DNA from: Ignavibacteria bacterium
GTDB taxonomy: Bacteria > Bacteroidota > Ignavibacteria > UBA10030
Length of the DNA: 64,000 nucleotides
Direction: 5' to 3'
Assembly: GCA_016873755.1 (NCBI GenBank)
Contig: VGWB01000001.1
Span: 3,387-67,386 of the forward strand
The position numbers and the translations under genes are program-made. Below the pieces are notes generated by a model. It ran no database searches. It was given only the letters and a program-made list of their open reading frames with translations, and was not told where the DNA came from. This document shows, in pieces, positions 207 to 14,090 of the stretch. The number at the start of each line of letters is the position of its first letter. Position 1 is the stretch's first letter.

Positions 207-2306
207 ATGCCATACTTCCCACAAGGACATAAGGACTTCAACGAGCTTAGGCATCTCATCCTCCTCTACGGGGATCCGGCAAAACCATGGACACGGGGGG
301 ACCTTCGCTACTACGTCGCGCATCTGGACCAGAAGGGCGAACCTGACGATTGGTTATTCGACTCGTTCCTGTTTCTCAACGTCAAGGCTGGAACGGGACG
401 TGACTACAGTGCCGATATTAACATCGGTTCGACGATGGCGGGCGAAGGCAATTTTGTCGCTGTCTGCTCTCCGCAACCCGCGAACAAGGGCGACTGGGAG
501 GCCCTTGTTGAATTCTATCTGGGCGAACACGGAGCTCTGCGAAATCTCGATGCAGCAATTGGCGAATGTGCGGACAAGATCGGCCGGCCCTACGGTGCTC
601 GCCGAAACGTCGTGCTGATGCTGCCGTATCCTCACATCACGCAAGGATCGTTTGGCGCCCTGTCGGAAGGTGGAGGAATCCTCGACTTCTCCACGAAGCG
701 CCACAACCTTGCGAAAGCCACGGAGGAGCGCCTCGCAGCCGAGCGGTGGTTGGTGGATGAGTATGTTCAGAGGTTCACGGCCCAGCAGTTCAAGCATCTT
801 GATCTGCTCGGTGTCTATTGGATGTTCGAAACGATATACCGAAGCTGGGACGTTGACGATCACTGGCTGTTGAAAGAGCTGCGGAAACACATACGCGCTC
901 GCGGTCTGAAGTTCTTGTGGATTCCTTTCTGGAGCTCCTACAATGTTCACCTTCTTGATGACTATCAAAAGTACTACTTCGATTTGGCGTTCCTTCAGCC
1001 AAACTACATGTTCTACAAACAGGGGAAGACCATTGCCGCAGCGGCGCATGCAGCTCGGCAGCGCAATGCAGGCATCGAGATGGAATATTACCTGGAGCTG
1101 AACGAGCCGATCGCCGTGCAATCGGAGCGACATGCACGATTCCGCGAATACCTCAACGGGGGCGTCACGTACGGATACATGTCCGATGCCGTCTGTGCAC
1201 ATTTCCAGGGAGCCCGGGCCCTGCAGCGCATGCATATGCACACCGATGCGAGAGAACGCGAATTCTACGAGGACATTTGTCAATTCGTGACGGGGACGTA
1301 TCGGCTCAAATCCGAGATCGAAGAACGCGGCGCGGAGGGGATCGGTCGGGTCGCGCTCTCGGTCGATCTGGGCGGTACGAATCTCCGAGGGGCACTTATC
1401 GATGCGGAGGGCACGATCCATCACCGGGTGAGCGAGCGGACGCCGTCTTCAAAGGAAGAAATCCTTCGGCGGCTGAAGTCCACGTTGCGAGGACTGGTGG
1501 ACGAAGCCCGGAGGCGCGGTGCGCATGTCCATGGAATAGGCGTGAGCACCGGGGGACGCGTGGACTTCGACGCCGGAGTCATTCTGGATTCGACGGCGCT
1601 CCTGTCGGACTGGCAAAACATTCCGTTGCGTGAGATCCTCCAGTTGGAGTTCCAGCTCCCGGTGTCGGTAGACAACGACGGTAACTGCGCGGCCTTGGCT
1701 GAGCTTATGTTGGGTGAGGGCCGCGCGGCCTCCCATTTCATTACGCTCGTGCTCGGTACCGGGATCGGCGGCGGTGTTGTTGTCGACGGCAAGCTCCTGC
1801 GTGGTGCGCGCAACGCCGCCGCAGAGCTTGGTCACATCAGCATAAGTCACGACGGACCAGAGTGCTCATGCGGCAACAAGGGGTGCGTCGAATTGTATGC
1901 GTCAGGTTCGGCTCTGGCTCGCCAGGCGAAGGAACTCGTCAAATCCGGTGCGATCAGGCTCGACAGAAACTCAGATCAGGATGTTAGCGCAGAGGCCCTC
2001 GCGGATGCAGCAAGAAAAGGGAACGCGGCCGCGCAGCAGCTCATAGAACAAGCGGGGACCTCCCTCGGAATCGCTGTTGCAGGCCTTCTCAACACGTTCA
2101 ACCCCGAGCGTATCATTCTCAGCGGCAGTCTCATCAAGCTTGGGGATATGTACATGAGACCTTTCCGGGAGACCGTCAAGGAGCGTTCTATGGCCGTCGC
2201 TCGGGAGACCGCCGTGATCGTCGTGTCAGATCTTTCCGACCCTGGTCTGCTCGGTGCAGCAAGCCTGGTTTTCAGTCGTGGTGCGGTCACCTCCGGCAGC
2301 TCGTGA
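207..2306 (+). CDS. Two-domain protein: N-terminal ~370-aa domain of unknown function fused to a C-terminal ROK-family sugar kinase (NagK/NanK/glucokinase-like)
   Basis: ATG at 207. The C-terminal half has the ROK hallmarks: an ATP-binding 'LSVDLGGTNLRGALID' motif and the Zn-binding 'CSCGNKGCVELYASGSAL' motif. The N-terminal 370 aa has no kinase motif; it may resemble Bacteroidetes DUF-type domains, but this is unverified. Confidence 0.8.
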   Translation: MPYFPQGHKDFNELRHLILLYGDPAKPWTRGDLRYYVAHLDQKGEPDDWLFDSFLFLNVKAGTGRDYSADINIGSTMAGEGNFVAVCSPQPANKGDWEALVEFYLGEHGALRNLDAAIGECADKIGRPYGARRNVVLMLPYPHITQGSFGALSEGGGILDFSTKRHNLAKATEERLAAERWLVDEYVQRFTAQQFKHLDLLGVYWMFETIYRSWDVDDHWLLKELRKHIRARGLKFLWIPFWSSYNVHLLDDYQKYYFDLAFLQPNYMFYKQGKTIAAAAHAARQRNAGIEMEYYLELNEPIAVQSERHARFREYLNGGVTYGYMSDAVCAHFQGARALQRMHMHTDAREREFYEDICQFVTGTYRLKSEIEERGAEGIGRVALSVDLGGTNLRGALIDAEGTIHHRVSERTPSSKEEILRRLKSTLRGLVDEARRRGAHVHGIGVSTGGRVDFDAGVILDSTALLSDWQNIPLREILQLEFQLPVSVDNDGNCAALAELMLGEGRAASHFITLVLGTGIGGGVVVDGKLLRGARNAAAELGHISISHDGPECSCGNKGCVELYASGSALARQAKELVKSGAIRLDRNSDQDVSAEALADAARKGNAAAQQLIEQAGTSLGIAVAGLLNTFNPERIILSGSLIKLGDMYMRPFRETVKERSMAVARETAVIVVSDLSDPGLLGAASLVFSRGAVTSGSS

Positions 2307-2484
2307 CGGTCTTTCTTGGCAAAGGGAAAATCCAGGATTGTCGTGCCCTAATCTTCTTGAGTTTGCCAACTCTGCGCGGAGGCTGCTTAAGAATTGCCCA
2401 TTTCAGGTGAAGCCTTCTCTGGTACATAAGTTGCGAACTGAGGAACACACTCATCCATATTTGTCAACAATCAGGAGATGAACC

Positions 2485-13900: not shown

Positions 13901-14090
13901 AGACCGTCTTGTCGTAGCCGCCCCACGGGGCGGGAATAGTGTATTTCCACCACTTCGTATCATTCAGAGACGGTGACGCTGCATGAGGAAATTCCCCTTC
14001 TTTCAATTTCCAGTCGGACAAAGGGACAGATGCCGGATAGATGTGGCTCTTGATGAAGGGGAGAGTCTGGGTGAGGAGATCGATTGCCAT
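10977..14090 (-). CDS. Glycoside hydrolase family 38 alpha-mannosidase; cytoplasmic (no signal peptide), with a ~230-aa N-terminal extension
   Basis: 1037 aa. The GH38 catalytic-region motif 'HIDVVWLWRL' (HxDxxWLW) and the aromatic-rich central and C-terminal domains are present. No N-terminal hydrophobic segment. Confidence 0.85.
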   Translation of the reverse strand: MAIDLLTQTLPFIKSHIYPASVPLSDWKLKEGEFPHAASPSLNDTKWWKYTIPAPWGGYDKTVWFRRRVRVPREFSGKPVALLLDLPESLLYLNGKPYHGVDSHHQEVLLTTRARTNQSFLVAIEAYSGRRSELSTFNSAELVTLNPTARLLYHGLLALHELERTAGQSTPESKEVREIIRQTLVFLKYFKPEGEEYPNAIVRAYNFLSRTLETEYKTDIQGLIHLIAQSHIDVVWLWRLQETKRKCARTFSTVLRLMEEFPELSYTQSQALLYELVKEKYPDLYKEIKQKVSEGRWHPIGSTWVEPDCNIPNGESLVRQILHGKRFFRREFGLDSDVLWLPDSFGYSWALPQILKKTGIKYFFTTKLTWNDTTKFRHNTFWWQGIDGSKVLSHAPAVGLEGSIAPKDLKKSWEGFVEKEESPETLQTFGFGDGGGGPTKEQIESWRILRTIVGLPPSTFSSVTGFFKVVEEHAGELETWDDELYLEKHRGTYTTLGWVKRENRQAESQLYATELLSVLGWIFGATAASRRYEQDQIEKAWKKLLLNQFHDIVTGTSIAEVLDDVRKDFAEIRRTCEQLQHRALSGLVKNVKRRTREYDFAIFNPLAWKRNEYVLLEVKSKGKNFLVLDDHGRAVDHQILGRKKGIVHLLCYLENVPPFSFANLVVSPSTTQPAAAAPWKISHRLVDTPLYRLRLDSKGHFTSLYDKTLRRELIAKGARANVFQSFKDTPKQWDAWEIDPEYPSKQFELLKFNRIRILEMGPLRAAIRIEHKSDSGSSVSQDIRFYHKSRRIDFLTSVRWKEKQTLLKVSFPLNVKTSNATYEIQFGALQRTTKPTELRHRAMYEVPAQQWADLSEQKAGVSLINDCKYGYDASENRLRLTLLRSPHYPHPLDPLRLTDNRVTDQGDHQLSYALYPHAGDWRTGETLQRAREFNQVPLVIRGSADRISPLISYASSSIIVDCIKKAEDSDDVIVRIHEAHGQPAKVTFEFGARLEAVAECDMLENDLAPLKPVKSKLTLKFSPFEIKTLKLAFKPKR

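Follow-up and report, generated by a model that had tools for sequence, protein, structure and literature searches.

Gene content of the locus

A gene cluster was analysed at the start of a 64,000-nucleotide stretch of DNA from an Ignavibacteria bacterium (GenBank assembly GCA_016873755.1, contig VGWB01000001.1); the whole stretch is referred to below as the window. The region consists of two separately conserved modules, one nested inside the other. The outer module combines a hydantoinase-like gene, a DUF4855/N-acetylmannosamine (ManNAc) kinase fusion, NanE and GH38. The inner block encodes an acyl carrier protein (ACP), an ADP-forming acyl-CoA synthetase (ACS), a DUF4954 protein with a predicted left-handed β-helix (LbH), a DRE-TIM enzyme and two NagB paralogues. 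Genes were called from an open reading frame (ORF) listing together with Pfam and NCBIfam scans of the window and are collected in Table 1. An earlier note on this DNA had described a single metabolic island of ten genes. All of the genes that it named are present where it had placed them and in the same orientation, and the profile searches that it had suggested returned the same domain assignments, although positions 207-14090 hold nine genes rather than ten.

Table 1. Genes of the nested locus, with the domains or models on which each assignment is based
Feature	Position	Strand	Module, domains or score
DUF4855 + ROK fusion	207-2306	+	Outer module; Pfam/NCBIfam
PP-binding ACP	2485-2727	+	Inner block; Pfam/NCBIfam
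Fused ADP-forming acyl-CoA synthetase (ACS)	2733-4877	+	CoA_binding_2, Succ_CoA_lig, Ligase_CoA_2, ATP-grasp_5
NagB1	4895-5701	+	TIGR00502, 393.9 bits (cutoff 236.9)
DUF4954 + DUF6819	5904-7892	+	LbH acyltransferase-like (predicted)
HMGL-like DRE-TIM	7926-9308	+	HMGL-like, 9.5e-21
NagB2	9328-10140	+	TIGR00502, 423.2 bits (cutoff 236.9)
NanE	10236-10976	-	Pfam NanE, 8.8e-58; NF002231, 259 bits (cutoff 189)
GH38, four domains	10977-14090	-	Glyco_hydro_38N, Alpha-mann_mid, Glyco_hydro_38C, Glyco_hydro38C2
Inner block, ACP-ACS-NagB1 + DUF4954-DRE-TIM-NagB2	2307-10235	+	7.9 kb; separates DUF4855/ROK from NanE

A scan for sigma-70 promoters and terminators performed no better than on shuffled sequence, with consensus patterns that may not suit this organism; operon boundaries were taken from gene spacing only. 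The absence of NagA and NanA that the earlier note had reported holds: neither an Amidohydro_1-type NagA nor a DHDPS-type NanA was found among the window ORFs of at least 180 aa (scanned from 14 to 61 kb) or in the 2 kb upstream. An Amidohydro_3 protein (~26.7-28.4 kb) that was checked as a NagA substitute matched no NagA model. Over the same ORFs and upstream sequence, the locus does not have the make-up of the canonical Nan/Nag regulon, in which NagA and NanA accompany NanK, NanE and NagB.

An outer module conserved on its own

Homologues of the DUF4855/ROK fusion were traced to their contigs in order to read the gene order around them (L173-L177; surveyed loci are given L numbers throughout). 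In two loci labelled Ignavibacteriae (L173 and L174) and one labelled Elusimicrobiota (L175), the order is FAD-oxidoreductase, an unknown gene, the hydantoinase-like gene and DUF4855/ROK, then, convergent with the fusion gene, NanE, followed by GH38 and, optionally, GHL10. L176 has the same order up to NanE, beyond which its contig has no further called genes. DUF4855/ROK thus abuts NanE directly and convergently, with nothing between them, in all four loci. In a fifth relative, L177 (78% identical), and in no other, the fusion gene is followed by ACP-ACS-NagB, the arrangement of the window. In turn, ROK, NanE, GH38 and the hydantoinase-like gene were not seen beside the cassette in any other locus surveyed. 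The single island proposed earlier therefore separates into outer genes that are contiguous without the middle genes in L173-L176 and middle genes that occur elsewhere without the outer ones.

The synteny downstream, comprising SSF, PrmC, Metalloenzyme and ComEC, is common to L173 and the window. In a search for repeats over 2200-10400, the inserted block showed neither terminal repeats nor signs of a mobile element, GC content is even, and there is no break in composition at the edges of the inner block. L173 comes from the same assembly (GCA_964534125) as L090, a locus with a DRE-TIM gene that is considered below; the ManNAc/mannoside module is intact there on another contig.

The hydantoinase_A-like gene encodes 719 aa and lies directly upstream of DUF4855/ROK, to the left of the window, as seen in copies of the contig in freshwater metagenomes, including L001. 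Besides the DUF4855 (GH-like)/ManNAc-kinase fusion, NanE and an Ams1-like GH38, a wider outer set includes a hydantoinase_A-like protein that stands alone, an FAD-dependent oxidoreductase and an unannotated protein of ~495 aa. GHL10 and a secreted NAGPA-like protein often join it, in metagenome-assembled genomes (MAGs) labelled Ignavibacteriae, Elusimicrobiota and others. No function is known to have been described for this module.

The closest characterised relatives of the ROK domain are ManNAc kinases of the GNE type: it scores 260.8 bits against the ManNAc-kinase domain of GNE (PDB: 3eo3) and 158.5 bits against the best glucokinase, while missing the bacterial NanK equivalog cutoffs (132 vs 450). 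The DUF4855 half was modelled with high confidence (pLDDT = 90.6) and is predicted to adopt a TIM barrel like that of clan GH-A. Gene callers place the NanE start at 10913, giving a protein of 225 aa. All four Pfam domains of GH38 are above their cutoffs and the Ams1-like_1st N-terminal domain is matched as well, placing the protein among the α-mannosidases. Taken together, the outer module reads as intracellular processing of a mannose/ManNAc-containing glycan fragment to N-acetylglucosamine 6-phosphate (GlcNAc-6-P).

An ACP-linked clade of DRE-TIM enzymes

The DRE-TIM gene was compared across 166 loci including the window, drawn from species-representative genomes, metagenome contigs and loci fetched by exact protein. 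Each collection scan comprised the best 80 loci, mostly on MAG or metagenome contigs, with neighbours called by ORF and tblastn logic and with phylum labels as given in the database records. The sequences were split by identity to the window enzyme into clade A (at least 61%) and clade B (50-58%).

An ACP gene lies less than 1 kb from the DRE-TIM gene in 36 of the 52 clade-A loci and in none of the 114 clade-B loci (Fisher p = 2.8e-24). Several of the loci counted as negative are on contigs that end early, and in the window and L008 the ACP gene lies farther off, beside ACS. The ACP-linked DRE-TIM sequences all fall in one neighbour-joining clade, to which the window enzyme is 61-87% identical. 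Among its listed homologues, found in MAGs labelled Bacteroidota, Ignavibacteriales or Armatimonadetes, identity is 77-96%, and the source names are "2-isopropylmalate synthase" or "citrate (Re)-synthase". The MAGs in which clade A occurs carry the labels Bacteroidota, Gemmatimonadota, Latescibacterota, Planctomycetota, Spirochaetota and unclassified; those with clade B are labelled Syntrophales, Nitrospirota, Brocadiaceae, Omnitrophota, Lentisphaerota, Bacillota and others. For several lineages of the clade-B kind, there are reports or predictions of a Re-citrate synthase. From this range of organisms and from the JGI names, clade B probably consists of Re-citrate synthases. The window enzyme belongs to the sister clade rather than to the clade of these lineages.

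The closest solved structure is LiCMS (PDB: 3ble), on which the metal ligands and catalytic residues align in place. In the numbering of the window protein, R62, D63, E189, H264, H266, N300 and H359 do not vary among the sequences compared, 51 from clade A and 110 from clade B. The wider set of R62, D63, Q65, Q66, R94, E97, T123, R127, R185, H187, E189, H264, H266, N300 and H359 is the same in both clades and forms a pocket that is polar and basic, unlike the hydrophobic pocket of citramalate synthase (CMS) or isopropylmalate synthase (IPMS). Differences specific to clade A are few: R183, R364, in most members G361, and two small insertions. It had been suggested that the DRE-TIM enzyme cleaves a keto-sugar acid in place of NanA. 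Since every active-site residue that was checked matches the sister clade of probable Re-citrate synthases, the comparison argues for a Claisen-type enzyme acting on an acetyl-thioester and oxaloacetate, and not for a sialate aldolase of the pyruvate-lyase type.

Three further proposals for this enzyme were dropped or set aside. G361 replaces an Asp of the sister clade (D304 in LiCMS) and was considered as a sign of lost thioester hydrolysis or of adaptation to ACP; however, 11 members of clade A, eight of them ACP-linked, keep the Asp, and homocitrate synthase has a Lys at this position. R364 tracks ACP linkage better than G361, but LiCMS has a Lys there. Activity as a malonyl-ACP decarboxylase, or as a citryl-ACP lyase running in reverse to supply acetyl-ACP, was set aside as less likely in view of the unchanged active site and of thermodynamics.

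In two Gemmatimonadota MAGs, a 2-hydroxyacid dehydrogenase of the Ldh_2 family (malate/sulfolactate/ureidoglycolate type) lies directly 3' of the DRE-TIM gene (L010, 11437-12456; L019, ~9893-10909), and could supply or remove oxaloacetate.

Membership and gene orders of the inner cassette

The core of the inner block is a cassette of LbH acyltransferase, ACP and DRE-TIM, with or without NagB, and this linkage extends across phyla, with examples in MAGs labelled Bacteroidota, Gemmatimonadota, Latescibacterota and Planctomycetota. ORF clustering of the 52 clade-A loci returned as recurrent neighbours ACP (38 loci), NagB (19), DUF4954 (17), a protein of 420-470 aa (17) and ACS (4). The order DUF4954-ACP-DRE-TIM-NagB forms a tight operon with gaps of ~12-20 bp in an Odoribacter MAG (L088) and in L089 and L092. 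Gemmatimonadota and Latescibacterota MAGs have NagB-ACP-DRE-TIM with DUF4954 on the minus strand, L102 and L104 have DRE-TIM-ACP-NagB-DUF4954, and loci of the planctomycete type have (NagB-)altGlmU-ACP-DRE-TIM, where altGlmU denotes an alternative GlmU. In L116 the order is altGlmU-ACS-ACP-DRE-TIM.

The earlier note had asked whether the ACP/ACS/DRE-TIM trio is conserved beside nagB and nanE in the FCB group. For ACP and DRE-TIM with nagB this is so, and far beyond that group; ACS is an occasional member and nanE is not linked. Among 91 flanking ORFs surveyed with Pfam, no other family recurred beside the cassette, and in particular NagA, GlmS and GlmM did not. By this survey and the ORF clustering, the cassette is self-contained. 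Genes for acetate activation occur beside it only in clade A, with ACS four times, AckA once (L011) and Pta once (L095), and in L089 an ACPS phosphopantetheinyl transferase adjoins it. Genes of envelope biosynthesis (GT4, GT9, a WaaP-like kinase and a formyltransferase) were considered as a clue to function and set aside when they proved not to recur in the wider flank survey.

A xylose-isomerase-like TIM barrel (AP_endonuc_2) is encoded just upstream of the cassette in three loci, with a Gfo/Idh/MocA-type oxidoreductase beside it in two of them (L088, 7547-9837; L091, 5120-7547; L117, 4920-5840). No other family turned up as many as three times among the flanking genes; since both families are very abundant in these phyla, the recurrence may be due to chance.

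The DUF4954 protein and alternative GlmU

DUF4954 had been passed over as a bystander of the locus. It is instead a core member of the cassette with a predicted LbH acyltransferase-like structure, and the positional counterpart of the alternative GlmU in planctomycete-type loci. Its AlphaFold2 model, of moderate quality, is a left-handed β-helix for which the best structural matches are LpxD, GlmU and LpxA. At the level of sequence, the protein matched none of the NCBIfam GlmU models (TIGR01173, TIGR03991 and TIGR03992), lacks a nucleotidyltransferase domain, and so does not belong to the GlmU families. The 420-470-aa LbH protein of planctomycete-type loci contains NTP_transf_4 and Hexapep domains (Pfam) and passes the cutoff of TIGR03991 (alt_bact_glmU, 225.3), with 320.3 bits in L014 and 323.3 bits in L013; NCBI itself classes this model as a hypothetical equivalog.

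ACP and the ADP-forming synthetase

The window ACP belongs to the phosphopantetheine-binding carrier proteins (PF00550, 1.7e-15; TIGR00517, 79.6 bits, cutoff 70.45), with the motif GADSMQS and the phosphopantetheine serine at position 39. Carriers in the surveyed loci form two subtypes that are 45-57% identical to each other, an ACS-linked type with GADSMQS and a DRE-TIM-linked type with GADSLKS. The window ACP is of the first type: its identity is 76-88% with the ACPs that adjoin ACS in L089 and L008, and 45-57% with DRE-TIM-adjacent ACPs. At 7893-7925, where related cassettes carry an ACP gene between DUF4954 and DRE-TIM, the window has only a 33-bp gap, so the DRE-TIM-linked ACP was lost there and the ACS-linked one kept; L008 and L012 are similar. 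Since only the ACS-type ACP is kept in the window and L008, and L116 has a single ACP between ACS and DRE-TIM, one carrier may serve both enzymes.

The ACS gene starts 5 bp after the ACP gene, and the two adjoin each other in the window, L008, L089, L116 and L177. Over its full length, ACS has the five-domain architecture of ADP-forming acyl-CoA synthetases. The best match in the PDB is an ADP-forming 4-hydroxybutyrate-CoA ligase (PDB: 8wzu, full length, E 2.8e-176); all NCBIfam equivalog cutoffs are missed (708.7 vs 1300 for 4-hydroxybutyrate-CoA ligase, 535 vs 567 for TIGR02717). With occurrences in four of ~53 loci, ACS is an occasional accessory of the cassette and not part of its core.

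The two NagB proteins

Both NagB proteins of the window pass the TIGR00502 equivalog cutoff, as do the cassette NagBs of L014, L010 and L088. NagB1 is the paralogue attached to the ACP-ACS pair, and the order ACP-ACS-NagB is also found in L008 and L177. The orthologue of NagB2 in L009, L088, L089 and L092 is the NagB encoded after the DRE-TIM gene. NagB2 is of the E. coli/Borrelia type (PDB: 3hn6, E 1e-128; E. coli NagB 1cd5, 380 bits). It has S151, S152, R158, K160, T161 and Y254, residues of the allosteric GlcNAc-6-P site of the E. coli enzyme, and appears to be of this E. coli-like allosteric type.

A proposed acetyl-ACP node

The acyl-carrier route that the earlier note had entertained stands in part: an acetyl carrier is the most coherent reading of the linkage between ACP, DRE-TIM and nagB, while ACS, which had been given a central place, is only an occasional accessory. 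We infer that the cassette is an acetyl-ACP node that joins glucosamine phosphate, citrate synthesis and acetate, with ACP as a co-substrate of the DRE-TIM enzyme. The acetyl cargo is suggested by the citrate-synthase-type DRE-TIM partner, by the GlmU-like LbH partner, and by ACS, AckA and Pta as accessories; the acceptor of the LbH protein and the direction of flux are put forward on a similar footing. As a precedent, E. coli GlmU prefers acetyl-ACP, with a Km of 20 µM compared to 400 µM for acetyl-CoA (Whaley et al. 2021, PMC8666670).

In the proposed catabolic direction, the outer module would deliver GlcNAc-6-P from a mannose/ManNAc-containing glycan fragment. The LbH protein would pass acetyl back and forth between the thiol of ACP and the glucosamine phosphate amino group, in this case GlcNAc-6-P + ACP <-> glucosamine 6-phosphate (GlcN-6-P) + acetyl-ACP. 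NagB, which would interconvert GlcN-6-P and fructose 6-phosphate (Fru-6-P) plus ammonia, would pull deacetylation by draining GlcN-6-P, and the DRE-TIM enzyme would drain acetyl-ACP irreversibly by condensing it with oxaloacetate to citrate. ACS is predicted to charge or discharge ACP with acetate. The net reaction would be GlcNAc-6-P + oxaloacetate -> Fru-6-P + NH4+ + citrate, with the activated acetyl group kept and NagA not required. By our own estimates from general values, the N-to-S acetyl transfer is uphill by ~+20 kJ/mol and the citrate-synthase reaction contributes ~-35 kJ/mol, which makes the whole favourable.

Two nested modules, the inner being an acetyl-ACP cassette with net catabolic flux in this organism, offer what is tentatively the best explanation of the locus. 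The more specific proposal is that the cassette acts as an ACP-mediated, acetyl-conserving bypass of NagA, in which the LbH protein would transfer the N-acetyl group from GlcNAc-6-P (or GlcNAc-1-P) to the carrier, with a pull exerted on one side by NagB and on the other by an ACP-dependent enzyme of the citrate-synthase type, the ADP-forming synthetase or Pta-AckA. This is possible but doubtful. If true, the acetyl group of amino sugars would enter the tricarboxylic acid (TCA) cycle or yield ATP without ever being released as free acetate, and the DRE-TIM protein would be the first known ACP-dependent enzyme of the citrate-synthase type, and the first ACP-dependent Claisen member of the DRE-TIM family. 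While the enzyme families are individually known, their combination and the ACP-dependent chemistry that it implies are new; literature searches found no description of the cassette, of an ACP-dependent DRE-TIM enzyme or of a DUF4954 function. The cassette may be classed as a variant of known amino-sugar and acetyl metabolism, and as a new pathway if the NagA bypass holds.

Several points weigh against the catabolic acetyl-ACP scheme. The amide-to-thiol transfer at its centre is uphill, by the roughly 20 kJ/mol estimated above, and has no known precedent among LbH N-acetyltransferases. The model of DUF4954 is poor exactly in its most conserved segment, and neither the single sequence nor a 43-sequence profile found a match in the PDB by sequence. 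An hhalign comparison of DUF4954 with the alternative GlmU gave only a weak β-helix match (E 0.0024, probability 12%), so that homology to GlmU is not claimed. One metagenome locus, L109 (2150-8080), has altGlmU-ACP-DRE-TIM-NagB together with a distant DUF4954-like gene, and since it carries both, neither LbH protein can be a plain replacement for the other. DUF4954 is also found without the cassette, for example beside lgt in Treponema pallidum. NagB is missing from many planctomycete-type loci, where the full-length GlmU-like partner with its nucleotidyltransferase domain points to anabolic synthesis of UDP-GlcNAc. In L090 (10001-16147), the DRE-TIM gene belongs to clade A and stands alone, 3.4 kb from a gene for Si-citrate synthase. 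Finally, NagA may be encoded elsewhere in the genome.

A serious, if somewhat unlikely, alternative is that the same node runs in the anabolic direction. ACP would be charged with acetate by ACS, Pta/AckA or another route, NagB would make glucosamine phosphate from Fru-6-P and ammonia, and N-acetylation of the GlmU type, with acetyl-ACP as the donor, would lead on to UDP-GlcNAc for the envelope. The DRE-TIM enzyme would then either regulate the acetyl-ACP pool or draw on it as well, making citrate from which 2-oxoglutarate and glutamate are formed. Thioester-to-amine transfer is strongly favourable, the planctomycete-type LbH protein combines a nucleotidyltransferase domain with a TIGR03991 score of 320-323 bits (cutoff 225), the order altGlmU-ACS-ACP-DRE-TIM of L116 reads as one source and two sinks, and genes for GT4, GT9 and WaaP-like proteins lie near the cassette in L010 and L014. 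The preference of E. coli GlmU for acetyl-ACP fits as well, and its authors raised the supply of acetyl-ACP outside Proteobacteria as a question (PMC8666670). On the other hand, anabolic flux gives no necessary role to DRE-TIM, the most tightly linked gene, a source of acetyl-ACP is encoded in only six of ~53 loci, and the flank survey found no recurrent GlmM or GlmS nearby. The envelope-gene neighbours are not recurrent, NagB2 is apparently of the allosteric type typical of catabolism, and catabolic genes surround the cassette in the window. For this window the catabolic direction is slightly favoured over the anabolic one because it gives every core gene a role in a closed, balanced pathway, because of the type of NagB2, and because a module yielding GlcNAc-6-P lies around the cassette with NagA not found.

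It is improbable that the cassette makes an unusual N-acyl amino sugar, whereby the DRE-TIM enzyme would join acetyl-ACP and a 2-oxo acid without thioester hydrolysis to a citryl-, citramalyl- or malyl-like acyl-ACP, and the LbH protein would pass the hydroxy-dicarboxylic group to glucosamine phosphate or a nucleotide sugar. The differences between clades A and B in the lid near the catalytic His359 (G361 in most members, R364) and the dedicated phosphopantetheinyl transferase beside the cassette in L089 are in keeping with such a product. However, the lid differences are weak evidence because LiCMS has a Lys at the R364 position, and the oxo-acid pocket and catalytic residues are those of probable Re-citrate synthases. 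Conservation as high as 61-87% identity within the ACP-linked clade is more in keeping with a central metabolite than with a decoration, and no recurrent glycosyltransferase or export genes were found in the flanks.

Equally hard to credit is the absence of any shared pathway, with the DRE-TIM enzyme as the plain Re-citrate synthase of these lineages and with ACP, LbH and NagB adjacent for regulatory or historical reasons. JGI names relatives of the enzyme citrate (Re)-synthase, its active site is identical to that of the sister clade, and at least five well-flanked clade-A loci (L016, L020, L021, L090 and L110) have no cassette genes within 10 kb. Set against this, the ACP linkage (36/52 vs 0/114) is kept across gene orders, two LbH families and several phyla, the genome of L090 already has a Si-citrate synthase 3.4 kb away, and the ACPs form subtypes of their own, ACS-linked and DRE-TIM-linked. 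The original proposal of one amino-sugar/mannoside island, in which ACP, ACS and a DRE-TIM aldolase acting on a keto-sugar acid such as sialic acid replace NagA and NanA, had in its favour the contiguous genes with short gaps, the failure to find NagA and NanA in the window and the partial order of the closest relative, L177, but is now very improbable, being largely refuted by synteny: the outer genes are contiguous without the middle ones in four other lineages, the middle genes lack the outer ones in all other loci, ACS is rare, and DRE-TIM is by homology an acetyl-thioester/oxaloacetate Claisen enzyme.

Comparison with known systems

The use of acetyl-ACP by E. coli GlmU provides the nearest parallel, being a GlmU-type LbH acetyltransferase that acts on glucosamine phosphate, and in the present loci a GlmU-like gene adjoins an ACP gene. 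E. coli uses its housekeeping AcpP as the carrier and obtains acetyl-ACP through MadA, a malonyl-ACP decarboxylase (PMC8666670), whereas the cassette has a dedicated ACP and no Mad homologue. Its constant partner is a citrate-synthase-like enzyme, and DUF4954 has neither a nucleotidyltransferase domain nor detectable membership of the GlmU family. LpxA and LpxD are also LbH acyltransferases, ACP-dependent and acting on UDP-glucosamine derivatives, but no sequence relationship to DUF4954 is detectable; DUF4954 has the extra helical DUF6819, and its context points to acetyl rather than a hydroxy-fatty acyl group.

The DRE-TIM enzyme resembles Re-citrate synthase of the Clostridium kluyveri type in fold and length, and the probable Re-citrate synthase clade is 50-58% identical with all checked metal, catalytic and pocket residues the same. 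It differs in forming a separate ACP-linked clade and in coexisting with a Si-citrate synthase in at least one genome. Citrate lyase (CitD, CitE, CitF and CitC) carries out analogous chemistry, with an ACP thiol acetylated from acetate and ATP and with acetyl- and citryl-ACP interconverted with oxaloacetate. Its components are from unrelated families, however: the ACP here is of the phosphopantetheine type, compared to the ribosyl-dephospho-CoA group of CitD, the ligase is ADP-forming rather than AMP-forming, DRE-TIM stands in place of CitE, and there is no CitF-like transferase. With the canonical NanK-NanE-NagA-NagB pathway (NanA upstream) the locus shares a ROK of the ManNAc-kinase type, NanE and two NagBs. 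In contrast to that pathway, NagA and NanA were not found in the window, the kinase is fused to the GH-like DUF4855, and the NagBs belong to a different module from NanE and the kinase.

Chitin, peptidoglycan and host glycans provide GlcNAc, a major carbon and nitrogen source, and UDP-GlcNAc is the entry to the bacterial envelope. Both the use of GlcNAc and the supply of UDP-GlcNAc are regarded as fully mapped. The cassette, which recurs in several phyla and is present in a MAG of the gut genus Odoribacter, suggests that amino-sugar metabolism and the TCA cycle meet at an acetyl-ACP branch point that has gone unrecognised, and the current names "2-isopropylmalate synthase", "acyl carrier protein" and "DUF4954" conceal the association of its genes. 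With these loci, the question of whether and from what source acetyl-ACP is used for hexosamine acetylation outside Proteobacteria (Whaley et al. 2021) becomes directly testable.

Other genes in the window

The remainder of the window encodes a BNR protein with a type IX secretion system (T9SS) tail, caspase-like peptidases, an SSF transporter, the Amidohydro_3 protein and housekeeping genes. At 14421-24704, the BNR/Sortilin-repeat protein has 1866 aa and a T9SS Por_Secre_tail; next come two caspase-domain paralogues (Peptidase_C14) with CARDB and Glucodextran_B-like domains. At 24853-28400, the ORF of the SSF transporter overlaps the next ORF, Amidohydro_3, by ~330 bp as listed; in view of this overlap, the amidohydrolase probably begins only near 26.7 kb. 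In L091 and L173, too, SSF transporters are encoded close to the modules. Further downstream (38894-40884), a PfkB-family sugar kinase gene adjoins an IF-2B-family gene that resembles MtnA or ribose-1,5-bisphosphate isomerase.

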